Positions 2,541 through 64,000 of a stretch of 64,000 bases of DNA are shown piece by piece. The notes beneath the pieces were generated by a model, which saw nothing but the letters and a program-made list of their open reading frames with translations, had not been told where the DNA came from and searched no databases. Source of the stretch: Candidatus Zhuqueibacterota bacterium (GTDB lineage Bacteria; Zhuqueibacterota; Zhuqueibacteria; Thermofontimicrobiales; Thermofontimicrobiaceae); contig JBMOPW010000034.1 in the NCBI GenBank assembly GCA_049322915.1, positions 691,372 to 755,371 on the forward strand, given 5' to 3'. How positions within the stretch are numbered: the stretch's first letter is position 1; every line of letters starts with the position of its first letter. The translations under genes and the position numbers were made by a program.

Positions 2541-3134
2541 TCACCTCGATTTATTAAATTTACCTTCCAGTTTTTCAGCGCCATAAAATCCGGCGAGCGC
2601 CATGAGCACGATGCCAAAGGCGATTATTCCGGGCCGAATGCCCAGCAATTTATCCAGTGTGAACGTATCGCCCAAAAATCCTGCGATGAAGAGCGGTTCC
2701 AGCAGAAAGAACAGTTCGGAGAATGCGAATATCCCGGCGAACACGCCGAGCAAAAACATGATGCCATCGATTTTCATCGTGGCGCAGGCGACCAATCCGG
2801 TGCCGGGGCAATAACCGCCGATGATGAATCCAAATCCCAGAATCAACCCGCCGATGATTTGCGGCCAGAGATAGGTTGGATTGATGAAGATGAGTTTCAA
2901 GTCCAGCCAGCCAAATGCATTGAAATAGTAAATGCCGATCATGGCGACTACGATCGCGGTGAACATGACTTTGAACACGGTCATGTCGGTGAAATAAAAT
3001 TGCGCCGCCAGTTTGCGCGCGTTTCCAAAGCCGGCCCGTTCCAGTATAAATCCGAAGCCGATGCCAATGAGAAATGCCAGCACAAAGCCGGTCATTTCGC
3101 TGAAGAAATCCATCTGTGATAATGGTGCAAACAT
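2541..3134 (-). CDS. YeeE/YedE sulfur-compound transporter family protein
   Basis: GFGFILER and GGYCPGT motifs; highly hydrophobic. Confidence 0.85.
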   Translation of the reverse strand: MFAPLSQMDFFSEMTGFVLAFLIGIGFGFILERAGFGNARKLAAQFYFTDMTVFKVMFTAIVVAMIGIYYFNAFGWLDLKLIFINPTYLWPQIIGGLILGFGFIIGGYCPGTGLVACATMKIDGIMFLLGVFAGIFAFSELFFLLEPLFIAGFLGDTFTLDKLLGIRPGIIAFGIVLMALAGFYGAEKLEGKFNKSR

Positions 3135-3179
3135 AGGTTCCTCGTTAATTTATATTTGAGTGCTTCAAATTCTGGTGAG

Positions 3180-3692
3180 TTAGATCCATTGTTTTCTCAA
3201 AAAATAAGCCAGCATGTACGCGCCGACGAACACCATCATCATAAACGCCCAGCTACCAACAGCGAGCGTTGCGCCGCCGCTCAGCGCCTGTCCGCTGGTG
3301 CAGCCTCGCGCCAGCGACGCGCCAAACCCCATCAATCCCCCTCCGACAAACGCCAGGGCCAATCGAGTTTTATCGGTGACGTGTGGGCCGCGTTCGATTT
3401 TCCATTTCAAACGTCCGGCCAACGCGCCGGAGATGAGTCCTCCCACCAGCACGCCGAGCACCTCGTACACGAGCCAATCTTTCATGGGGCCGCCGCTCTC
3501 CGAGAAATAAGATCCCATGAAATGATTCTTTTCAGTATGGGCCGGAGCCACCTGATGTTCCACAGCAGCGACCGCGCGTTTGAATGCGCCGGATGCGCCC
3601 AGTCCGCGCCCGGCTATGACATAGGCAGCTAACAGCACCAGTCCCAGCAGAACGCCGGCAATGTAAGGCGACCAATATTTTTGTTGTTCCAT
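3180..3692 (-). CDS. YeeE/YedE sulfur-compound transporter family protein
   Basis: WSPYIAG and GASLARGCTSGQALSG motifs. Confidence 0.9.
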   Translation of the reverse strand: MEQQKYWSPYIAGVLLGLVLLAAYVIAGRGLGASGAFKRAVAAVEHQVAPAHTEKNHFMGSYFSESGGPMKDWLVYEVLGVLVGGLISGALAGRLKWKIERGPHVTDKTRLALAFVGGGLMGFGASLARGCTSGQALSGGATLAVGSWAFMMMVFVGAYMLAYFLRKQWI

Positions 3693-3741
3693 TTCATTTC
3701 CCTCAGTATCAATTTTCTGTCATTCGATTTCTATCAATGAA

Positions 3742-4707
3742 TTAATAAGGAATCCAGGTGGACATCTGTCCGGCCTGGACCATCAAAAATCGCAGGAGGA
3801 TTCCACCCAACAGCACGAAGACCGGCGAGAGAAAGCCCGGCATGTGTTTTCCCCTGATCTCGTGCAATTCCAGAAATGCAGGGAGAACCAATCCCAGCAT
3901 GACGATGAAAATCCAGAAGAAAGCAGTGAGTGGACCGCCCAGAATAAGTTTGGCCGCTTCCTGCGTAATGGCCGGTCCGGTGACCTGCTCGATGATGAGC
4001 AGGAGAAGGAACAGCATTTCCGTGAGAATCAAACCCAAATCAATTTTCTGGAATAGCGCTATCTCCTTTTTCTCCCGAGAAAGCAGAATAACCAATGCCG
4101 CAGCCGTGGATAAACCGGAGACTAAAAACAGGGGGCCCAGTATAGCAGAATTCCAGAACGGCCTCGCGGCGAACGCTCCCAGCAAAATGCCGGTGTAAAC
4201 ACCCACGAACAGACCAACGAACAGATTGATCCAGGCAATAGGGCGAGTGAATTTGGACAGCCAGTTCAGGATGCTATCTGCGCGGGGAATTCTGGTCACT
4301 ATCTGATTGCTGTAAAATTCAGGGAAGCCCTGTCGCAGTTGGGTTAAAATGAACAATAAATTGAACGGATAGAATACGATCAGAATCCAGGCGCCCCAGG
4401 ACATGGGCGCGGACGGCCGAAACGTCAGGTACATCTGGTAGACGCGAATTTTATTTTCCAGATCGAGCAGCAGCGCCAACATTCCCGCACTGAGCAGGAT
4501 CGGCGCCAACAGTGGCATCCGCGAGGCGGCCAGCGGCATCTCTTTTGATTTATTCAAAAGGACAAGCAGCGCCGAAAGCGCCACAATGCCGGCCACCAGT
4601 CCTCCTAAAAACAAATACACAGGAATTTCCCAGCCCCAGATATGCAGCGATGGATCAATGAGATGGTTCAATTTTCCACTTGTAATTTCTATTTCTTCCA
4701 TTGGCAT
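3742..4707 (-). CDS. psrC: NrfD/PsrC polysulfide reductase membrane anchor
   Basis: WGWEIPVYLFLGG, LDL and SWGAW NrfD motifs; adjacent to psrAB. Confidence 0.88.
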   Translation of the reverse strand: MPMEEIEITSGKLNHLIDPSLHIWGWEIPVYLFLGGLVAGIVALSALLVLLNKSKEMPLAASRMPLLAPILLSAGMLALLLDLENKIRVYQMYLTFRPSAPMSWGAWILIVFYPFNLLFILTQLRQGFPEFYSNQIVTRIPRADSILNWLSKFTRPIAWINLFVGLFVGVYTGILLGAFAARPFWNSAILGPLFLVSGLSTAAALVILLSREKKEIALFQKIDLGLILTEMLFLLLLIIEQVTGPAITQEAAKLILGGPLTAFFWIFIVMLGLVLPAFLELHEIRGKHMPGFLSPVFVLLGGILLRFLMVQAGQMSTWIPY

Positions 4708-4894
4708 TCCTTACAATAATATTGAATTGTGTATTTGATACGATTTAATGCTGTTGAAAAAGTCACTGCGGACGAACCCGGCAGCACTCCGAGAGAATCT
4801 TCGGACTCCCCCATCTGTCTGTTATAACGTAACCTGATAATGCCAGTTAACTCTCAGTTCGACCCGGTGACAATTTTAAAAACAAGTAACCGGA

Positions 4895-5434
4895 TCAGAT
4901 CAAATAATAAACCTGGGGACCCGTGCCGGTGGAGGGCTGAATGACTTTCCATTTTCTGGAATTCAGCAGACGACTCACTTCGCTGTTGGGTTGGTTCAGG
5001 TCGCCGAAATACAAACAACGGGTCGGACAGACCGAGACGCACGCAGGCAGCTTGCCTTCTTTCAAGCGATGCTCGCAGAACGTGCATTTATCCACCCAGC
5101 CTTCCGGATGGACGTAACGCGCATCGTAGGGACAGGCGGCGATGCATGCTTTGCAGCCAATGCATTTGCTGTGTTCCACCAGCGTGATGTTGGAATCAGA
5201 TTCGATGTAACTGGCCCCGGTCGGACAGGCATGCACGCACGGAGGATGCTCGCAGTGATTGCATCGTTCCGAACGTATCTCCAGGCTCAGTTCGGGAAAC
5301 TTGCCGTGAGTCTCCTCGACAATCCAATCGCGATGAAATCCATCAGGGGTTTGATTTTCTGTCTTGCAGGCCACAATGCAATCCGTACATCCCACGCATT
5401 TTTTGGTATCGATCACCATCGCATAACGCGCCAT
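4895..5434 (-). CDS. psrB: 4x[4Fe-4S] electron-transfer subunit (PsrB/NrfC family)
   Basis: CxxCxxCxxxC, CNHCEHPPCVHACP and KCTFC motifs; start overlaps psrA stop. Confidence 0.9.
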   Translation of the reverse strand: MARYAMVIDTKKCVGCTDCIVACKTENQTPDGFHRDWIVEETHGKFPELSLEIRSERCNHCEHPPCVHACPTGASYIESDSNITLVEHSKCIGCKACIAACPYDARYVHPEGWVDKCTFCEHRLKEGKLPACVSVCPTRCLYFGDLNQPNSEVSRLLNSRKWKVIQPSTGTGPQVYYLI

Positions 5435-7647
5435 TATACTCCCTCCATCTTAAACGTCACAAAATTTCCCCGCATGCCGGTCCCGCCCATGATTGGATCC
5501 ATCAATACTTTTGTAATCAGCATATTGTCATCTGCGCCTTTCAGGTAGGATCGCGCCATCTGTTTTTGCGTATGGCCAAATCCATGCACCATGTAGACGC
5601 AGTCATTCCTGATGCGTTGAGTGACTTTCGCCTTGATGCGATTGCTCACCACACCGTCCTGGTTCTCCAGCCGGACATAGGCGCCGGGTTTGATTCCCCA
5701 CTCTTTAGCCACCGATTCGCTGATCCACACTTCATTCTCATTTTTCACCTGGGTGAGAATGGGATTGTTGGTGGTTCGGCTGAACGTATGCATGGGCGCG
5801 CGGCCGTAAATCAACCGATAATACCCTTCCGGCGGTTCTTCGTGTTTGGTGTATTTCGGGATGGGATCGAACCCGTATTGTTCGAGTTGAGTTGAGTATA
5901 ATTCGATTTTGCCGGATGGCGTGTAAAATTCGTAATCTTCACCATCCAGGCCGTACAGCGGCGAATCCCAGTCAAATCGCTTGAGGCCGATTTTTTTCAT
6001 TTCCTCCAACGAAGTCCCCATCTGCTTCAGGCGATAATCGAGGAATTCTTCAATATCCTGCCACGGAAAATATTCGCTGAGATTGAGCTTGTCTGCCAAT
6101 TGCTTCACCATCCACCAGGCCGGCCTGGAATCCCAACGCGGCTGGAATACGGGCGCCCTCAGTGCGACTGTGGGAAACCGTTCCTGCAGAATGCGCAGAT
6201 CATCGTACCGTTCGAGGTACGTGCATTCCGGAAGCACGACGTCGGCCCAGCCGGTGATCTCCGTCGGCATCACGTCAATGGCCACCAGCAAGTCCAGCGC
6301 CTGAATTGCCTGCATCGTCTTGTTCACGTCCGGGATGGTCAGCGGAATGTTCACGCCGTACACAAACCAGCCCTTGATATTGCACTCGTTCTCCACCGAG
6401 GGCACTGTGGCGTCGCACAACCCGGATGACAGCACCAGCGACGCCAACGGGTATTTATCCGGATAAACGCTGCGCCAATCGCGCTTGGGCGCCGGCGGCT
6501 TGGGCGCCGGATAATCAACTTCATCCAATTTTGCCGGGAAATAGAATCCGCCTTTTCGGCCCCAGCTTCCCAGCAGCGCATTGATGATAGCACTGGCGCG
6601 CACCCGCTGCGTATCATCGCCGTACCAGGTGACATGCCGTCCCGGATGCACAATGACGCGTGGGGCAGCATGGCCCATTTCCCGCGCCGTCTTGCGAATG
6701 ACGTCGGGCCGAATGGTTGTAATCGGGTAGGCCCATTCCGGCGTGTAGGTTTTAACCGTCGCTTTCAACACATCAAAACCATAGGTATATTTTTCAACAT
6801 AGGCTTTATCGTATAATTCCTCTTCGATGATCACATTTATCCAGGCCAGCAACAATGCCATGTCCGTCGCCGGCTTGATCGGCAACCAGTATTTGGATTT
6901 GCTGGCCGCGACAGAAAAACGGGGATCCACGGTGATGATGGTTGCGCCGCGTTCGATAGCTTCAGCAAATTCCTGCACCTGACTATTGTGCATATTCTCG
7001 CCGAGGTGGGAACCGATCAAGACGAGACAATCGGTATTTTTGATGTCGGTATTGGGCGGCGAACCAACCTGTTCGCCAAAGGTCAGCATATAGGCATCCT
7101 CGCGGGGACCGCGGCATTGGGCATAAGAAGGCGCCGCTACGTTGGTGGAGCCCCAGGCATTGATCAGCTTTTTGAAAAACGTACCGCCCGCTCCGTGAGT
7201 GAACAGCGCCACGCATTCCCGGCCGTGTTCCTTTTCAATCTTGTACAACTTCTCGGCAATATAATCGAACGCCTCGTCCCAGGTCGCTTCCCGGAATGTC
7301 TGCTTCCCGCGCGCCTCGGTTCGAATCAGGGGCACTTTCAATCGGTCATCATCCATGTACGCGCCCATGCCGCCGCTTCCCCGAGGACAAAGCCGGCCGC
7401 GACACATGGGATCGTCCTCGTGGCCTTCGATCTTCCACGGCTGGTTATCTTTCTTCACAGCCCAGGCAGCACATTTCCAGAAACAAATCTCGCAATAGGT
7501 TGGGACACGTTCAATGATAGGTCCATTTTGCGAACCAGCGCTGCCGAAAAGGTTGAACGGCTCAAACAGCCGCGCCCCGAACGCTGCTCCGCTTAATCCA
7601 AGCGAGGAGATTTTAATGAAATCACGTCGATTCACTTTTTTGGGCAT
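5434..7647 (-). CDS. psrA: Molybdopterin oxidoreductase catalytic subunit, polysulfide/thiosulfate reductase type
   Basis: Tat signal NRRDFIK; CEICFWKC...C FeS motif; AQCRGPR probable Mo-ligand Cys; start moved to MPKK. Confidence 0.88.
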   Translation of the reverse strand: MPKKVNRRDFIKISSLGLSGAAFGARLFEPFNLFGSAGSQNGPIIERVPTYCEICFWKCAAWAVKKDNQPWKIEGHEDDPMCRGRLCPRGSGGMGAYMDDDRLKVPLIRTEARGKQTFREATWDEAFDYIAEKLYKIEKEHGRECVALFTHGAGGTFFKKLINAWGSTNVAAPSYAQCRGPREDAYMLTFGEQVGSPPNTDIKNTDCLVLIGSHLGENMHNSQVQEFAEAIERGATIITVDPRFSVAASKSKYWLPIKPATDMALLLAWINVIIEEELYDKAYVEKYTYGFDVLKATVKTYTPEWAYPITTIRPDVIRKTAREMGHAAPRVIVHPGRHVTWYGDDTQRVRASAIINALLGSWGRKGGFYFPAKLDEVDYPAPKPPAPKRDWRSVYPDKYPLASLVLSSGLCDATVPSVENECNIKGWFVYGVNIPLTIPDVNKTMQAIQALDLLVAIDVMPTEITGWADVVLPECTYLERYDDLRILQERFPTVALRAPVFQPRWDSRPAWWMVKQLADKLNLSEYFPWQDIEEFLDYRLKQMGTSLEEMKKIGLKRFDWDSPLYGLDGEDYEFYTPSGKIELYSTQLEQYGFDPIPKYTKHEEPPEGYYRLIYGRAPMHTFSRTTNNPILTQVKNENEVWISESVAKEWGIKPGAYVRLENQDGVVSNRIKAKVTQRIRNDCVYMVHGFGHTQKQMARSYLKGADDNMLITKVLMDPIMGGTGMRGNFVTFKMEGV

Positions 7648-56458: not shown

Positions 56459-56627
56459 GTGACGACTCAGGTGTTCAATAATTTGAAATGGAATGGAAGC
56501 CGCTGAGACGGCTAAATTCCTGAGTGCGCATCGACTATCACCATGTTGAAGCATGGCGCTGGTTCAAAATTGCGCCAAAACCGCGATTTATCGTGGCGCT
56601 TCCGGAACACGTGAGCTGAGTCGTTAC
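56459..56627. mobile_element. 169-bp IS66-like MITE with perfect 8-bp TSD
   Basis: TIR GTGACGACTCAG/CTGAGTCGTTAC; ATGAATTC at 56451-56458 and 56628-56635. Confidence 0.85.
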
Positions 56628-56670
56628 ATGAATTCGTTACTGTACCGTCATCATTTTGAGGTTAACGCAC

Positions 56671-57474
56671 ATGGAAAAACACGATCTCGATAGATTGGCG
56701 CGCGCGGTCTACTATCTCGAAAACCCAACCTGGACAGCGACCATTACTGACATCATCGGCATGCCGGTTGAATGGGCGATTCGAAAATTACCCGCAAAGG
56801 CCAATCAGATTATTTCCAACGCCACGTCAAAGGCCATCAGCAAGGCGGTCAAAGTGGCCGTTTTGACAATGAACGCCGAGCATCGGGGGGCGCCCAAAAA
56901 GTGGTGCCACAGAGGTGCTGTAGCAACATCCGGCGCCATCGGCGGCTTTTTTGGCCTGGCAGGCCTGACCGTGGAATTGCCCGCTTCCACCATTATCATG
57001 CTTCGGTCCATCGCCGATGTTGCACGGAGCCAGGGCGAGGACATTACAAAAGTTGATTCCCAGCTTCAATGCGTGAGCGTCTTTGCGCTGGGCAGCAAAT
57101 CCTGGGATGACGATGATGCATCTGAATCGAGCTATTACGCAATTCGGGCGGTGCTTGCAAAATTAATTTCAGAAGCCGGCAGCTACATCGCGGAAAAGGG
57201 ATTCGTCGAAGAAGGCGCGCCCATCATTGTAAAATTCATCGTCAGAATCGCTTCGAGGTTTCAGGGAATTATCTCCGAAAAGGTCGCTACAGAGAGTATC
57301 CCTGTGATTGGAGCATTGGGCGGCGCTTCGATCAATCTGCTTTTTATGAATCATTTCCAAAGAGTCGCCACCGGCCATTTCATCATACGGTCGCTGGAGC
57401 GTGCATACAGCGCCGAAGAGGTCAAAATCGAGTACAGCAGAATCGCCGCTAACCAACGCGCGCCGCGCAGTTGA
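56671..57474 (+). CDS. EcsC family protein
   Basis: GAIGGFFG, ELPASTIIMLRSIADVAR and GHFIIRSLER motifs. Confidence 0.85.
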   Translation: MEKHDLDRLARAVYYLENPTWTATITDIIGMPVEWAIRKLPAKANQIISNATSKAISKAVKVAVLTMNAEHRGAPKKWCHRGAVATSGAIGGFFGLAGLTVELPASTIIMLRSIADVARSQGEDITKVDSQLQCVSVFALGSKSWDDDDASESSYYAIRAVLAKLISEAGSYIAEKGFVEEGAPIIVKFIVRIASRFQGIISEKVATESIPVIGALGGASINLLFMNHFQRVATGHFIIRSLERAYSAEEVKIEYSRIAANQRAPRS

Positions 57475-57528
57475 CGGTGATCAAGCCAGACGCTCCATCC
57501 AATTGATTCGGCCTGCCGCGCCAAAAGC

Positions 57529-57688
57529 GCGCGACTGCTCCCCTCTTTTCGCTCGACTTGACGTTGCGATTACTGAAAAATCAACTTGATTTTCTGCGGC
57601 ATTTTACTATATTCATACTCATACACCCTGGCAGGATATTCGGTGTTCCATAGAAGAAACCGTCCTTCGGGATCACTTTCTTTTTTGA
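57529..57688 (+). repeat. L end copy 1 (160 bp; core + promoter + structured leader)
   Basis: About 96% identical by eye to 60552-60711; TTGATT-N16-TATATT at 57586-57613. Confidence 0.9.
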
Positions 57689-58037
57689 ACACAATGCGGT
57701 CGGTGTGATTCTCTGCTAAGCCATGAATGAGTCCATGCTAAAAAGGGGCTAATGCCCAAAAATCAAACGTAAATTTCTGTTCCCCGATTTAAAAGTCTGG
57801 GCTATTCAAGGTGTCTGACTTTTAACTTTTTCAATTGAATTTCTATGTCATTTATGAAGTGGAAAAAATATCACGACCAAAGTATAAAAGCCTTTGATGA
57901 CTTTTTAGAGTCGGCACATTATTAATTTCACAATAAGAAATAGTTATTCTGAATTGCTTCTACATTTTTTCAATTTATCTGGGATGTTATGCAGGTCTGT
58001 AAAATAACTTGTTGGACAAAACAAGGAAACAAATGCG

Positions 58038-60203
58038 TTGACAGATTTCACGAAAGAAATACCGCGACGGCTATTGGATATTGAGAACAAGAGTCGCTCA
58101 AACCTGTTCGCATGGCGTGGACAGTTTTCCCCACAACTTATCGAGACGCTAATTGAGGCGTACTGTCCGCCAAATGCCACAATACTCGACCCCTTTGCAG
58201 GAAGCGGAACAGTACTATACGAAGCCGCCAGGATGGGGCTATCAGCTTTCGGATTTGAACTAAACCCCTCCGCATGGACATTCAGTAAGCTTTATGAATT
58301 CGCTAACATCTCCCCTCTCTCTCGGGAAGCCGCAATACGCGAGCTTCGGGCCGAAGTATCCCGCGAGTTCCCGATCGTGCTCTTCTCGAAAAAGGAGCTT
58401 CCACCTGATGAGGTAGAGTCCCGAATTATCCGGATTGGGACGTCGATCAGTGACCATGCAAAGGTTCTATGCAATGCACTGGTGGTGTTGCTCGGCGTCT
58501 TTAACAACGCTATCTCCAGCGATCTAATACATAGCAAACTCATGGCGCTCGCTGCACTCGTCAGGGGACTTCCATATTCTGACGGACTGATCAAAGCCGA
58601 TTTGCAGGATGCTCGTTGCCTACCCCTTGAGGGCCACTCGATTGATTTCGTCGTCACTTCCCCTCCATACATAAACGTTTTCAACTACCACCAGAACTAT
58701 CGCCGTTCCGTCGAGATTCTTGGCTGGGATGTGCTCAGTGTTGCTCGCTCCGAGATCGGCTCTAACCGTGCGAACCGCGGGAACAGGTTCCTCACAGTAA
58801 TACAGTACTGCATCGACATGGCGAACGTACTGCAAGAGCTTGCGAGGGTTGTCCGCCCTGGCGGTCGCGTGGTTATAGTCGTAGGGTACGAATCAAGGGT
58901 GCTCGGTGTTCCCTTCTACAACGCGGAGATAGTTGAGGCGCTTTCCGAGCAGATTGGTATGTTTGACCTCGCGATTAGGCAGCAGCGCGTCTTTCAGAAC
59001 CGTTTTGGACAAGACATCCGCGAAGATATCCTTAACCTGACAAGACGATCCTACTCTAATGGATACGGTCTTTCTGAAAGAGTCGGCCGTAATGTGGCCT
59101 TAAATGCGTTGCAGCAAGGTTTTTCAACTGCCGCTCCTAAAAACAGGTCTCTGCTCGAAGAGGCCGTGGCAGCGGTCGAACGTACGGAGGGAACTCCGGT
59201 GTTTGACAGTAACGCCTATAGCACCTACCAAACCCGTAATTACGTGATGATGGTCAAAGAAGAAAAGGGAGACTACCCTATGAATGATAATAGCATACAT
59301 CTACCAGCACCTCATTTATCCAAGCTCCAGGCTCTGTTGAAGAATCCGCGATTGCCAGGGGCAGACAAACCACGCGTTGAAGAGGCGCTCGTTCACTACC
59401 GCGAATGGATCAAAGAACTCGAGTCTGTACGTGCAGGACGAAAGGGGGCTGTGCAGAAGCTTGTCGATGCAACGAACAAATACAAGGCTTTCATCGAACT
59501 TGAGTTTATCTTCGATAGCCCGGAGGATTTTCTCTACCGCCAGAAGGGACAGTTGAAACTCGATAATACCATCTTGGAGGAGTTTCTCCCGCAGTTGATA
59601 TTCCGGGGGCTCATCCTTCCTGTCGGCACGTACGAATTCGGACCGCAGAAGACCTTTGCAGGGCTGAGCTTCACTTCAGGCCTGGGCAATACAGGACAAG
59701 GGGGACAGGCGAGTCTGAGGACAAAGGACCAAGACTTCGTCCTCGGGAAGCGCCTATTCATGATGACATCTTTCGACAGAGAGTTTCGTGATGCTGAGCG
59801 CCTGGAAGCGCACGTGGGTTATATATGCGCTGAATTTAAGACCAATCTGGACAAGACCATGTTCCAGGAAGCAGTGGCAACCAGCAGAGACCTCAAGATT
59901 GCGGTTCCCGCTTCCCTGTATTTCCTTGTATGCGAGTTCCTTGACATGGCACCAGTGTCAATAACATCGACCCATATCGACGATGTTCTGATCGTGCGCA
60001 AGGCCAAACGGATGAACTCAAATGTCCGTCAGGAGTACCGCACTGCGCTTGACCGAAAAGCACATCGCAGCGAGTATGTTGAGTTCCTGGATGATTCCAA
60101 GTACCATGCGGACGTTTTCCAGCGCATGATTGACAAGATACAGGTGATGGTGGACGACACAGATCCCACTGCAGGGAAGGTTCTAAGCCGAGGGTACTTC
60201 TGA
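58038..60203 (+). CDS. Fused amino-methyltransferase (SPPY, likely m4C) + Bpu10I-family restriction endonuclease
   Basis: ILDPFAGSGT and VTSPPY; C-terminal YRQKGQLKLDNTILEEFL and AEFKTNLDKTMFQEA. Confidence 0.85.
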   Translation: MTDFTKEIPRRLLDIENKSRSNLFAWRGQFSPQLIETLIEAYCPPNATILDPFAGSGTVLYEAARMGLSAFGFELNPSAWTFSKLYEFANISPLSREAAIRELRAEVSREFPIVLFSKKELPPDEVESRIIRIGTSISDHAKVLCNALVVLLGVFNNAISSDLIHSKLMALAALVRGLPYSDGLIKADLQDARCLPLEGHSIDFVVTSPPYINVFNYHQNYRRSVEILGWDVLSVARSEIGSNRANRGNRFLTVIQYCIDMANVLQELARVVRPGGRVVIVVGYESRVLGVPFYNAEIVEALSEQIGMFDLAIRQQRVFQNRFGQDIREDILNLTRRSYSNGYGLSERVGRNVALNALQQGFSTAAPKNRSLLEEAVAAVERTEGTPVFDSNAYSTYQTRNYVMMVKEEKGDYPMNDNSIHLPAPHLSKLQALLKNPRLPGADKPRVEEALVHYREWIKELESVRAGRKGAVQKLVDATNKYKAFIELEFIFDSPEDFLYRQKGQLKLDNTILEEFLPQLIFRGLILPVGTYEFGPQKTFAGLSFTSGLGNTGQGGQASLRTKDQDFVLGKRLFMMTSFDREFRDAERLEAHVGYICAEFKTNLDKTMFQEAVATSRDLKIAVPASLYFLVCEFLDMAPVSITSTHIDDVLIVRKAKRMNSNVRQEYRTALDRKAHRSEYVEFLDDSKYHADVFQRMIDKIQVMVDDTDPTAGKVLSRGYF

Positions 60204-60216
60204 AAACAACTGCCTG

Positions 60217-60558
60217 ATCGGTTAAGCTGGAGATTTTCTCTCCTCGCTCACCATATCACCTTGCATCCCGAAACTTTGGGACAGTGCGTTTTCCGCCCGA
60301 GGCGATTTCAGCGCCGAAATCACAGCGGATGAAAGTTAATCAGGAGATCTCGGATAGAAACTAAACCCTGTTCGTTCGTTGTTGCAAGGCTGGCGGATAC
60401 GCAGTCGCCGATCTGTGACGGCTCTGGCCAGAGATAATCCTCCGCATTCGAAATGAGCAATGCCCCTCCTTGATGTCGCGGCGCCGAAGATCCGCCATCT
60501 TTTTGCGGGATTCAGACATCAGCCATTTCCCTGAACGTTTGACGACTATGAGCGCGAC
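60217..60558 (-). ncRNA. R end copy 1: 342-nt ORF-less group II intron-like RNA
   Basis: Minus strand begins GUCGCGC and ends with D5-like (CGC triad, 2-nt bulge) and D6-like (bulged A, ...ACCGAU) helices; about 94% identical to 63188-63529. Confidence 0.65.
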
Positions 60559-60711
60559 TGATCCCCTCTTTTCGCTCGACTTGACGTTGCGATTACTGAA
60601 AATTTAACTTGATTTTCTGCGGCATTTTACTATATTCATACTCATACACCCCGGCAGGATATTCGCTGTTCCATAGAAGAAACCGTCCTTCAGGATCACT
60701 TTCTTTTTTGA
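60552..60711 (+). repeat. L end copy 2
   Basis: Direct repeat of 57529-57688, abutting R copy 1 through the core GCGCGACTGATCC. Confidence 0.9.
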
Positions 60712-60852
60712 TGGTACACGGTCGGTATAATATCTTGAAGCATGCGTTGCTGTAACATTCAACGCAATGAATTTATGATTGTTCGGGGATCCAATGCAGT
60801 AACTCTCTAATCACTTGTTATACTGAATATTTCATTATTTAATTAAAGTTTT

Positions 60853-61842
60853 ATGTTTACCTATTTTAAAAAATGTATATTTTGTTTTAACGCTCTACCA
60901 GAAACTCCAACTGGCGATGGAGAACACGTTATTCCTAAAAATATTTATGGATTTTGGCGTGTGTATGATATTTGCGATTCCTGTAGACAATATTTTGGTG
61001 ACAAAATCGACCAATTATCAATTAAGAATGCATGGATTTTAAAAGCACTTCATCAATTGGATATTCCCGAATATGAAAAGTATAGTGAAAATTTACCATA
61101 TGTAGGCAAAGATACAATTGACGGCAAGCCTGTTGAAATGATAAGAAAAAACAAAAAATATAAAAATAAAGTTCGTCAAATTGATGATAAATTTTTTGAA
61201 TGTTCTGAAGATGATTGGAAACATATTGGTCAAGAATGGATTAGATCCACTAATAAAAGTAATATTGACGATGATGTACTTAATAATGAAATTAGAAAGT
61301 TAAATCAGAATTACGATACGGCTAAACTTGGTGAAATTGTTGAGTCTGATAAATTAAATGTAAAAATACGAAAAAGACAAGTGAAAGATATCAAATTAGC
61401 AATTGAAAAATTACCACCAATTACCCCTTTAATTGCAAAAATTGCATCATTTTTTTTAATCTATGCATTACCTCCAAGAATAATAAGTAATTTACTTGAG
61501 ATTGAATCACTTGTTAATCATGCAAGATATGATACAAAAATAAGAGAGTATTTTATAAATTGGTGCCCACTTTTAATTAAAGAAGAATATCAAAAAAGAC
61601 ATACAATTAGAATGCATAATTCTGACCACTTGTTAGTTTTAGATATATCACTGTTTGGATATCCTAATTGGCGAATCTTTTTACATTGTAAGCAAAAGAT
61701 TAAGTTTGATCCATTCGATGCAATAGAATATGATACATTAATTTTTATTCTAGATTTTGAAAATCCCGATAATAAACGAAAAATCATAGGTTTTAAAGCT
61801 ATAAATGACAAAGATTATAAATTTTTTAATGCGCAAATTTAA
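60853..61842 (+). CDS. HNH endonuclease domain protein (AT-rich, cassette-like)
   Basis: CIFC...GEHVIPKNIYG...ICDSC zinc-HNH N-terminus. Confidence 0.8.
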   Translation: MFTYFKKCIFCFNALPETPTGDGEHVIPKNIYGFWRVYDICDSCRQYFGDKIDQLSIKNAWILKALHQLDIPEYEKYSENLPYVGKDTIDGKPVEMIRKNKKYKNKVRQIDDKFFECSEDDWKHIGQEWIRSTNKSNIDDDVLNNEIRKLNQNYDTAKLGEIVESDKLNVKIRKRQVKDIKLAIEKLPPITPLIAKIASFFLIYALPPRIISNLLEIESLVNHARYDTKIREYFINWCPLLIKEEYQKRHTIRMHNSDHLLVLDISLFGYPNWRIFLHCKQKIKFDPFDAIEYDTLIFILDFENPDNKRKIIGFKAINDKDYKFFNAQI

Positions 61843-61846
61843 AAAA

Positions 61847-61972
61847 GTATAACATTTCAATTAGCATGAAAAACCGCGGATGATGAAATCCAGAATTTTG
61901 AAAGATTATGTAGTTCATCTTTTTAATTATAATTCAGCGAAGCTGCTTTGCAAGTTACACAAGGCGTAAAAA
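61847..61972 (+). other. Degenerate attC-like site
   Basis: R'' GTATAAC just after the HNH stop is the exact reverse complement of GTTATAC at 60817; imperfect long-range pairing to the 3' arm; R' reads GTAAAAA. Confidence 0.5.
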
Positions 61973-62065
61973 ATATTAAAGAATGAAATATTATAAATAC
62001 TATCAAGGACAATGTAATATATTGTATTATTAGATGATCCGCTCGAAAGGAGTTGATGATGCTTT

Positions 62066-63133
62066 ATGAAAACTTCAAAGATATTCATTTCCATCATCAT
62101 ATTTTCAGTAGTTAATTGCACTCCAATGATATACAAAGTTTTACCATTAATTGAAAATAATCTTAATTCAGAAATTTTATTTTTTGAAGGAAATGAATTA
62201 ATTATTTCAACTGGTGAAGATTCTGATTTATTAATTTATGGTATTCACAAAGGTGAAGATCTAATATTTCATATCTTTATTAAAAATAAGTCGAATGAAA
62301 AAATAAATCTTTTTCCGGAAAGATTTCATGTAAAAGGTATGGATAAAAGACAAAAAAAATATGATCTGCATGTATATGATCCAGATTTATTTTTAGCTAA
62401 ATTGAGAAACGAACATGCTTTCTCAATGTTTTTAAGCGCCTTAGCAAGTGGAATTGATGCATACAATTCTGCAAAAACAACATCTTCCACTCATTTTTAT
62501 TTAAACAATGGTACAGCTGGCCATGTCACATCTGAAACTTATGATAACTCCAAGCGATCACAAATAATGAACGAGAATATTGATCGCTTAAAAGAAACTG
62601 ATAACCAATTTGAACAAAATTTAGGCTATATTTCCCAAAGACTATTAAAAAGAAATACCCTTTATCCTGGGCAATCTTTGGAAGGTAACATAATTATTGG
62701 ATTGGATATTCATGATAGATATAATACGACCAACACTCACAAGGTAAAATATATTGACTTGACAGTACCATTTGGAAAAGATGAGCATAGATTCAAATTT
62801 TTAATTGCTAAACTTGGTGATAAATTATTAGAAGAAAGATATATAGAAAATTATCGAGAACACCAAATAAAACAAAATAATCTTTTAAGAATCAGGAGTA
62901 TTAAAAATAATTATTTGCTAATCTATAAACCAGAGTCCTTAGATCTTAAGATTGATCAAGAATTTGGGTTAGTAAGATTTACTGATCCAAAACAACCTGA
63001 AATCGGTCTTTTTTCTATTGGTAGCGCTACGGTAGTAAAAGTCATTCATGAAAAAGTAATTTTAAAATATGATCTTTTGAATCATATTAATGAATTAACG
63101 CAGGATGACTTCATTCAATTCACAAACAATTGA
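62066..63133 (+). CDS. Hypothetical lipoprotein (AT-rich)
   Basis: Lipobox-like VVNC; LLKRNTLYPGQSLEG motif. Confidence 0.75.
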   Translation: MKTSKIFISIIIFSVVNCTPMIYKVLPLIENNLNSEILFFEGNELIISTGEDSDLLIYGIHKGEDLIFHIFIKNKSNEKINLFPERFHVKGMDKRQKKYDLHVYDPDLFLAKLRNEHAFSMFLSALASGIDAYNSAKTTSSTHFYLNNGTAGHVTSETYDNSKRSQIMNENIDRLKETDNQFEQNLGYISQRLLKRNTLYPGQSLEGNIIIGLDIHDRYNTTNTHKVKYIDLTVPFGKDEHRFKFLIAKLGDKLLEERYIENYREHQIKQNNLLRIRSIKNNYLLIYKPESLDLKIDQEFGLVRFTDPKQPEIGLFSIGSATVVKVIHEKVILKYDLLNHINELTQDDFIQFTNN

Positions 63134-63187
63134 TGTCATTTTAGTTAAAACTAATTGATATACACAAATGAAGTTTTCGCTGGCTTG

Positions 63188-63529
63188 ATCGGTTAAGCTG
63201 GAGATTTTCTCTCCTCGCTCACCATATCACCCTGCATCCCGAAGCTTTGGGACAGTGCGTTTTCCGCCCGAGGCGATTTCAGCGCCGAAATCACAGCGGA
63301 TGAAAGTCAATTCGGAGTTAGCGGATAGAAACTAAACCCTGTTCTTTCGTTGTTTCAAAGCTGGCGGATATGCAGTCGCCGACCTGTGACGGCTCTGGCC
63401 AGAGATAATCCTCCACATTCGAAATGAGCAATGCCCCTCCTTGATGTCGCGGCGCCGAAGATCCGCCATCTTTTTGCGGGATTCAGACATCAGCCATTGT
63501 CCTGAACGTTAGACCGCGATGGGCGCGAC
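63188..63529 (-). ncRNA. R end copy 2: 342-nt ORF-less group II intron-like RNA
   Basis: Same length as copy 1; D5 ACGCACUG-UCCC-loop-GGGA-UG-CAGGGUGA; D6 GGUGAGC..GCUU-A-ACC-GAU. Confidence 0.7.
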
Positions 63530-63736
63530 TGATCCTTCGCACGCTCCGGACAAAGACATTTGTTTGATCATCCCGATAATGGCCCGACGCGACTCAGTTC
63601 TGAGCTGGGTCAATAAAACAGCCAGTGATAAATTCAAATAAAAAGTGTGCAGTGATCAAAGCCTCACATTGGACAATTACTTTGTGTGCTTCGTACCCTT
63701 TTACATCCGATGCTCGCATTTATAGGAGGAAGATGA

Positions 63737-64000
63737 TTGAATGAAACGATTGAAATCAAGCCGATCGGCGTAGTATCCTCACCGGTGAAGGAAGCGGTCG
63801 ATGAGAACTGGGTGAATGTGATTTCAATGGTTGTTCTCCTTCAGGAATATGATGCACACGAACGGAGCGCCTATTCGGGAACACAAGTTCCATTCCATTT
63901 AACGCGATGGATACACATCCAGCGCGATCCGGTTTTGGAAATTAATCCGGAGTGCGATGCCTTAATGCATCGCATGTCCACCAAAAGCCGGATCAAGGCG
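63737..64000 (+). pseudogene. TrmO/TsaA-like N-terminal fragment (open to window end)
   Basis: AGGAGG SD + TTG; IKPIGVVSSPVKEAVDENW resembles the TsaA/TrmO N-terminus; similarity appears lost after about 40 aa. Confidence 0.5.

Follow-up and report, generated by a model that had tools for sequence, protein, structure and literature searches.

A probable class C group II intron remnant, decayed and duplicated as DNA, behind two cargo genes of a Candidatus Zhuqueibacterota bacterium

Two tandem units with a repeated element

The stretch analysed here, called the window, comprises 64,000 nucleotides (nt) of contig JBMOPW010000034.1 of a Candidatus Zhuqueibacterota bacterium (assembly GCA_049322915.1; this genome is 96% complete and is called G000 below). 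Its NorB shares 79-86% identity with KSB1 MAGs, 78-82% with Caldithrix MAGs and 88% with one MAG labelled Cytophagia; a place in the KSB1 / Zhuqueibacterota group is probable. Towards its end it carries two tandem units in the order repeat D2, cargo 1, copy 1, repeat D2, cargo 2, copy 2 (Table 1). The name repeat D2 denotes a repeat; intron domain 2 is always written in full. Copy 1 and copy 2 are direct repeats of about 353 nt (60212-60564 and 63183-63535 in a pairwise alignment), for which the repeat search gave 95% identity across 300 nt (60212-60511 against 63183-63482) and the alignment 21 differences in 348 aligned positions. Both contain on the minus strand an element of 342 nt that runs from the G of GTCGCGC (60558 and 63529) to the T of ACCGAT (60217 and 63188) and that has GGATCA as its 5' flank and CA as its 3' flank. 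An earlier reading of the bare letters (the original prediction) had described two copies of a miniature group IIC-like ribozyme without an open reading frame (ORF), antisense to the cargo. The repeat search and the alignment place both copies where it had put them, at 60217-60558 and 63188-63529, and they do lie on the strand opposite to the neighbouring genes. The intron-derived portion itself begins at about 60550 in copy 1 and at about 63521 in copy 2. Each copy probably represents the rear half of a group II intron of class C (IIC), one which has decayed and was copied as DNA together with neighbouring sequence.

The 353-nt repeat folds no better than shuffled sequences, with z-scores of -0.64, -0.22 (minus strand) and -0.28 (plus strand). 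Searches with blastn gave no match in plasmids and phages and short fragments only in 60 relatives, and the 5' half of the repeat and the right flank had no meaningful match in 150 relatives. A minus-strand ORF of 52 amino acids (aa) was considered as a gene and rejected; it has no relatives among longer proteins, and three of its six differences between the copies are silent, which is too few to judge.

Table 1. Features of the two units, in window coordinates
Feature	Position	Strand	Basis
Repeat D2a before cargo 1, with the complete GC hairpin in front	57529..57730	+	Repeat search, three-way alignment
Cargo 1: 721-aa protein, DNA methyltransferase fused to a restriction endonuclease of Bpu10I type	58038..60203	+	Pfam, PADLOC; stop 11 nt from the D6 end by open-frame test
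Copy 1 of the putative intron remnant (3' part of D3, ORF-deleted D4, D5, D6)	60217..60550	-	Homology to ORF-less IIC copies and full introns of relatives
D6 of copy 1	60220-60252	-	Equivalent of D6 of copy 2
D5 of copy 1, second mismatch added	60257-60288	-	Equivalent of D5 of copy 2
Intron-protein gene remnant in copy 1, last 19 codons and stop	60320..60379	-	Frame translation against the C-terminus of a full RT/maturase; DNA alignment
3' strand of D3 and 5' arm of D4 in copy 1 (region that once bound the protein and the ribosome)	60401..60527	-	Alignment to ORF-less copies and full introns
13-nt stretch GCGCGACTGATCC at the joint of remnant and repeat D2 (site 1)	60552..60564	+	Three-way alignment
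Repeat D2b, non-intron module whose sigma-70-like promoter (60609-60636) points towards cargo 2	60552..60755	+	z ≤ 1.5 against intron 5' regions
Cargo 2: 25-33% GC; HNH_5-like 329-aa ORF and 355-aa ORF without family	60853..63133	+	Stop 52 nt from the D6 end by open-frame test
Copy 2 of the putative intron remnant, content as in copy 1	63188..63521	-	Homology as for copy 1; 21/348 differences from copy 1
D6 of copy 2, bulged A 7 nt from the 3' end	63191..63223	-	Compensatory changes in the basal and apical helices
D5 of copy 2: CGC triad with G-U, UG bulge, one A-G mismatch, enlarged loop	63228..63259	-	Matches of covariance models R1 and R2; model positions coincide with Rfam RF00029 hits in relatives
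Intron-protein gene remnant in copy 2, with a premature TAA	~63291-63350	-	Equivalent of copy 1
D3 3' strand and D4 5' arm of copy 2	63372-63498	-	Equivalent of copy 1 region

Homology and domain content of the element

The element ends in two hairpins with the features of domain 5 (D5) and domain 6 (D6) of a group II intron. Both are as the original prediction had drawn them: D5 has a CGC/GUG base with a G-U pair, a 2-nt UG bulge, an A-G mismatch and in copy 1 a second mismatch, and D6 has a bulged A 7 nt before its ...GAU end, within the 7-8 nt from the 3' end that is characteristic of group II introns. The CGC triad marks class C group II introns. Triad, G-U pair and 2-nt bulge, the marks of a IIC D5, are all present, in a degraded form: beside the triad, where C-G is found in most relatives, stands an A-G mismatch, joined in copy 1 by C-A.

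Two further, diverged copies of this 76-nt 3' module are found in G000 (C11:2330-2405 and C16:19159-19222), and the hairpins of the copies in this genome are preserved through compensatory changes. A covariance model built from the four copies (R2; cut-off E ≤ 0.05) has matches in 31 of 151 related genomes, with up to 10 matches per genome and many of them at contig ends. Seven ORFs beside such matches were tested: three are unrelated genes and four (L043, L077, L049 and L058) encode proteins with RVT_1 and GIIM domains, whose ORFs end 14-19 nt from the match at three places and ~117 nt from it at L058. Rfam model RF01998 has hits upstream of the match at all four of these reverse transcriptase (RT) genes, and RF00029 (Intron_gpII) coincides with the match at three of them, with 44.7-45.7 bits against a gathering score of 40. 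When 41 distinct matched sequences were aligned to the model, 91.1% of the cells held standard pairs and 22 of the 24 pairs showed changes on both sides. None of 500 shuffles gave as high a count, and partners slid by 1-3 columns pair at no more than 51.5%. Since four of the matches adjoin RVT_1 and GIIM genes, three of these coincide with RF00029 hits and the pairing is kept, the 76-nt module is by homology the D5-D6 part of a lineage of group II introns that have a CGC triad.

The lack of a significant hit to the Rfam models had been named in the original prediction as a reason to abandon it, and indeed no Rfam group II hit was obtained on the whole window (gathering threshold), on 56500-64000 (E ≤ 10) or on 63150-63570 (421 nt, E ≤ 10). 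The lineage-specific model nevertheless shows the homology. The Rfam group II models find three of the four full RT introns, miss most of the matches in relatives and detect none of the copies of the lineage in G000. The Rfam models thus miss many copies of this IIC lineage, which is present in 31 of the 151 related genomes, members of an uncultured bacterial class; a model made for the lineage is a simple means to recover the degraded copies. Searches by pattern were not informative: a D5-hairpin pattern had 13 matches in the genome contigs, about the estimated chance number and none with D6 behind it, and a stricter pattern had no match in metagenome contigs. G000 also harbours other group II introns (C36:229698-229774, C19:88048-88124 and C32:241272-241348), which score 67.8-69 bits with RF00029 and are not matched by the IIC model, and a 988-aa open frame with an RT domain (G000:C34:430811-431758) that is 36% identical to the IIC protein.

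Upstream of D5 the content of the element could be read by comparison with relatives. A first test of element positions 1-190 against full introns gave no significant match; positions 27-185 align to the interior of two ORF-less copies of 334 and 472 nt in the relative G048, with z = 5.2-8.3. In a multiple alignment, read together with the D4 of full introns, CAUCGCGGUC...GACAAUGGCUGAUGUCUGA corresponds to the 3' part of domain 3 (D3). Next comes the 5' arm of domain 4 (D4), which reaches as far as the former site of ribosome binding (UUGAAACAAC against CCUUGAACAACC-AAGGGA-N6-AUG), followed by the last 19 codons of the intron protein, D5 and D6. Positions ~190-250 represent the end of the intron protein gene, with a local DNA alignment score of 39-44 against a null of 18-19 (standard deviation 2). 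In copy 1 the frame TNEQGLVSIRDLLINFHPL, closed by a stop codon, aligns with WLKDQGLVSVRELWIAFHYPNG, the C-terminal end of a full RT. The element is ORF-less, as had been claimed: the RT/maturase gene that belongs in the D4 of a IIC intron is represented by this remnant only, in frame in copy 1.

Domains 1 and 2 have no counterpart in the element in the alignment with full introns and ORF-less copies, and the Rfam models for D1-D4 were silent on the 421 nt at E ≤ 10. The element thus has neither domain 2 nor domain 1 with its scaffold and exon-binding sites, nor does it have the conserved 5' end of IIC introns, which is of GUGYG type and reads GTGTACGCCCGG in this lineage, as it starts with GTCGCGC. 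In the original prediction GUCGCGCCC was taken for the start of the intron. Related introns open with GTGTACGCCCGGCATGGGC, and GTCGCGC falls within a 13-nt stretch that is also found at an intron-free site and in a third copy of repeat D2 (see below). The supposed entry of D3, GGUCGGCGACUGCAUA, aligns instead with the D4 hairpin directly before the former start codon. From the description as a streamlined or decaying ribozyme, decay can be retained; a complete, streamlined form cannot, since domains 1-2 and the true 5' end are absent. The original prediction is borne out for D5-D6: the last 76 nt have their homologues in these two domains of genuine group II introns that carry a CGC triad. A DNA-cleaving RNA like HYER (hydrolytic endonucleolytic ribozyme) had also been suggested, which requires a complete catalytic core; it is unsupported because this core is incomplete here.

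Decay is the rule in this intron lineage, because only four of 41 places in the relatives and G000 carry a full RT gene, the rest having RT remnants only (7), ORF-less D4 sequence (12, of which 10 across the deletion joint) or neither of these (18, of which five are cut by a contig or locus end). The ten places with ORF-less D4 across the joint were found with an interior profile and belong to six genomes (G000, G048, G057, G064, G066 and G072). At G064:C80, RF01998 matches directly before the ORF-less D4. The 334-nt and 472-nt ORF-less copies of G048 are exact repeats from the family 5' end (GTGTACGCCCGGCATGGGC) to the 3' end. They lie at different loci of one contig (1786-2119 and 10795-11266 of L073, G048:C37) and most of domain 1 is absent from them; the shorter one looks derived from the longer one via a deletion between two direct repeats of ~27 nt. 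In arrays on G096:C12, G066:C94 and G048:C37 the copies are 0.9-1.9 kb apart. Integron integrases above the NCBIfam cut-off (TIGR02249) were found in four of four tested relatives with such copies, and in G064 the integrase is encoded 2.5 kb from an ORF-less intron (C80:216-533 and 3095-4027). The relatives with integron integrases that are rich in these copies are G064, G048, G066 and G096. In G000 itself TIGR02249 stayed below the cut-off, and only XerD and an XerC-like tyrosine recombinase were seen.

Repeat D2, the joints and the origin of the units

Repeat D2 went unmentioned in the original prediction. Its two copies in the window (57529-57688 and 60552-60711) are 96% identical, the latter abuts copy 1, and a third on contig C13 (G000:C13:112599-112688) is 87% identical over 89 nt. 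The repeat consists of a promoter (TTGATT-16-TATATT) and then ~80 nt which end in a hairpin and a T-run, and it could encode a small RNA or act as a leader; Rfam gave a chance-level PhotoRC-I match only. It was also considered as the missing 5' half of the intron, and this was rejected, since its minus strand reached z ≤ 1.5 against five intron 5' regions.

The three-way alignment revealed 13 nt, GCGCGACTG(A/C)TCC, that are common to three sites. At site 0 (57529-57541, one change) they stand between unrelated DNA, without an intron remnant, and repeat D2. At site 1 (60552) they stand between copy 1 and repeat D2, and at site 2 (63523-63535) between copy 2 and unrelated DNA. They recur in diverged form in the C13 copy of repeat D2, where GCGCG..TCC is the second arm of a GC hairpin, as at site 0. 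The 13 nt therefore belong largely to repeat D2, and because site 0 and the C13 copy assign them to this repeat, GTCGCGC is not an intron terminus. The identical flanks GGAUCA and CA, in which the original prediction saw recognition of the intron-binding sites IBS1 and IBS3, are indeed present on both copies. The GGATCA flank, however, was duplicated together with the remnant and therefore says nothing on IBS1.

The two copies share their truncation point and the 13 non-intron bases, and for this reason one copy is a DNA duplicate of the other, not the product of another retrohoming event. We infer the following order of events. An intron of the lineage that is common in this bacterial class would have entered the minus strand in the interval from the end of a gene to the promoter module of repeat D2, directly behind the GC hairpin at the edge of this repeat, so that the intron 3' end came to lie a few bases from the stop codon of the opposite-strand gene. 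An antisense 3' end near the stop of a gene is the usual geometry for IIC and IIC-attC introns, and it is a habit of this family too (28 of 41 places, see below). The RT gene would subsequently have been lost through a deletion that reached from the ribosome-binding region to a point 19 codons short of the stop, and another one would have taken domains 1 and 2 along with half of D3 and half of the GC hairpin that borders repeat D2. The leftover part of D3, with D4, D5 and D6, would then have been copied as ordinary DNA with 13 bases of repeat D2, which would yield two tandem cassette-like units of repeat D2, cargo and remnant.

Domain 1 contains the exon-binding sites and the scaffold on which D5 docks. 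Since it is absent, and since D5 has a mismatch beside the triad and gives no RF00029 hit, we infer that the remnant is catalytically dead. An RNA that starts in D3 would, with domain 1 missing, be unable on its own to splice, to reverse-splice or to cut DNA. The present roles of the remnant are likely passive ones: to offer 340 nt of homology for recombination between the units, and to place a structure, as DNA or RNA, downstream of the cargo genes. As a ribozyme it holds no practical interest. The remnant belongs to the IIC lineage by descent and would fail both as a functional ribozyme and as a HYER, domain 1 being absent.

Known systems show several parallels. Like truncated IIC introns, the remnant has D5-D6 with a CGC triad and an RT/maturase remnant, has lost its 5' part and is placed behind a gene; it differs from them in its two deletions (of the ORF and of domains 1-2) and in that non-intron DNA was duplicated with it, the remnant now forming the 3' end of both cassette-like units. 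Passages of one source describe bacterial intron copies as mostly truncated or inactivated, and IIC introns as inserting at terminator motifs or at attC (PMC4424553). With ORF-less IIC introns and HYER ribozymes the remnant shares IIC ancestry and the loss of the protein gene. However, HYERs and other ORF-less ribozymes retain, according to the parts of PMC11754743 that treat them, a whole catalytic RNA of 0.4-0.6 kb, whereas the ORF-less remnant has no domains 1-2 and a damaged D5. IIC-attC introns of the S.ma.I2 type are described in part of PMC3001079 as sitting in the bottom strand, opposite to the cassette genes, and the remnant has this orientation towards the adjacent cargo gene. Further likenesses to this type are a promoter towards the next gene, located here in repeat D2 and not in the intron, and the integron integrases in the tested relatives with such copies. 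Integron arrays differ in that no attC boxes were seen by eye in the region and that G000 has no integron integrase. The conserved unit between the cargos is also ~550 nt, far longer than attC.

Several observations fit less well with a decayed intron that was copied as DNA. An empty site was not found, and a search of 13 family relatives showed no conservation of the flanks: the left flank gave no match in these genomes and the right flank was matched only via an unrelated 150-nt tandem repeat. The present 5' flanks contain no significant attC or terminator hairpin; the deletion may have taken the 5' flank with it. The alignment behind the covariation counts was fitted to the model, which favours the structure. 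D5 and D6 together hold two of the 21 differences between the copies, which is compatible with mild constraint, with numbers too small to test. Lastly, the cargo-side edges of both repeats coincide with the exact intron 3' end plus CA and partly shared GC. This is unexpected for a random duplication; it suggests either that the intron end had a part in the process or that cargo was exchanged in the manner of cassettes. The tandem history could possibly have run by unequal crossing-over at the 13 nt, by site-specific insertion of a circle or by loss of a third unit. One possible course is a duplication by unequal exchange at the 13 nt, after which one cargo was replaced; another is an array of units of which the third was lost except for 13 nt of its repeat D2. 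Insertion of circular units at the 13 nt as a core is a possible course as well, against which it speaks that no recombinase was found in the units or in the 20 kb upstream, and that the genome has only XerD and the XerC-like protein.

This last course is part of a wider alternative, according to which remnant, 13 nt and repeat D2 form the joint of a mobile cassette and circles of repeat D2, cargo and remnant recombine at the 13-nt core. Site 0 would then be the left joint, site 1 a circle-type joint and site 2 the right joint, and the enzyme would act in trans, e.g. XerC/D, an integron integrase of a donor or an intron RT. The three sites (unrelated DNA-core-D2, remnant-core-D2 and remnant-core-unrelated DNA) are arranged as tandem site-specific insertion would leave them, both copies end on the cargo side exactly at the intron 3' end, and the cargos are unrelated, one having the GC content of Table 1 in a setting of ~50% GC. 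The integron integrases in the relatives with remnants, one of them close to an ORF-less copy, agree with it too. In the one DNA run that contains the locus (Logan contigs) the depth is 45.8 over cargo 2, 70.5 over cargo 1, 53-66 in the flanks and 101-113 in the shared repeat. The lower depth of cargo 2 could mean that some cells are without unit 2, or could reflect GC bias. Besides the recombinase results above, the core has by eye no GTTRRRY box or dif-like arms, and no further genome with these units was found in the searches of relatives. Repeat D2 has the 'core' within its own hairpin, so that no crossover site is needed to account for the overlap of the three sites. We regard this alternative as rather unlikely. 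It is improbable, too, that the units are cassettes whose conserved ends were made by insertion of an IIC-attC-type intron and which are still exchanged or added. Intron-assisted formation and shuffling of cassettes is an idea reportedly proposed by Leon and Roy in 2009. If a cassette reading were true, the locus would be a natural snapshot of this process outside a classical integron, and it would bear on how cassettes acquire conserved ends.

The remnant could also have been retained for a new role, e.g. as an antisense transcript, as a structured 3' element that controls toxic cargo or as a 3' half that pairs in trans with the RNA of a 5' half intron. The position of remnants 11-52 nt downstream of genes for restriction, HNH and (on C16) PIN-HicB proteins would suit such a role, as would the few differences in D5 and D6. 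However, an opposite-strand open frame of at least 80 codons that stops between -10 and 150 nt after D6 was found at 28 of the 41 places, against 524 of 1988 random positions, so placement behind genes is a general insertion habit of the whole intron family. The minus strand has no promoter or terminator that stands out, the 52-aa ORF is without relatives, and for a partner in trans G000 offers one RF01998 match only, which is sub-threshold (31.9 bits against a gathering score of 35). A new role thus seems very improbable. The form closest to the original prediction is a complete, streamlined 342-nt ORF-less IIC ribozyme with ends of its own that inserted twice via IBS recognition and perhaps splices or cuts like HYER. 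D5 and D6 are genuine, the 3' end is the exact intron end, both copies have the GGATCA and CA flanks, and the two short G048 copies indicate that short forms can retain both ends. On the other hand, domains 1 and 2 are absent, the start of the element matches D3 and not the family 5' end GTGTACGCCC, and GTCGCGC occurs also at the intron-free site 0 and in the third copy of repeat D2. The D5 with mismatches by the triad is not seen by RF00029, which scores the full introns of relatives and the three other introns of G000 well (values above), and the 342 nt fall short of the size range given for ORF-less group II ribozymes in the passages of PMC11754743 cited above. Such a ribozyme is extremely unlikely. 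Overall, the element is an ordinary decaying remnant in an unusual duplicated setting.

Cargo genes and flanking sequence

The 329-aa protein of cargo 2 scores 26.3 bits with HNH_5, under the Pfam cut-off of 27.5, and the 355-aa protein has no match in Pfam, NCBIfam or PADLOC and no relative in the genome contigs. This two-gene insert is possibly a small defence pair. On contig C16 (L042, G000:C16:14000-25000), positions 4445-7176 comprise a PIN-HicB toxin-antitoxin pair, then an antisense intron fragment and then a degenerate DDE_Tnp_1 transposase gene in pieces; the fragment consists of RT residues 353-389, extra DNA, a hairpin that is not D5, and D6.

The contig ends where the window ends, in the 150-nt tandem repeat mentioned above (63851-64000). 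The same repeat opens two small contigs (G000:C17:1-506 and G000:C38:1-219), in which no recombinase was found among the ORFs scanned. A part of ~70 nt occurs about 30 times in the genome and lies inside an open frame that starts at 63737, and the repeat is probably a repeated protein module that broke the assembly. The Logan contigs are broken at the repeats as well, and none of the eight pieces listed bridges the joint of remnant and repeat D2. Between repeat D2a and cargo 1, at 57611-57835, their depth rises to ~1090, compared with 50-70 around it, with loose ends and a short GCAAGA-type repeat; this jump points to a very high-copy sequence in the metagenome.

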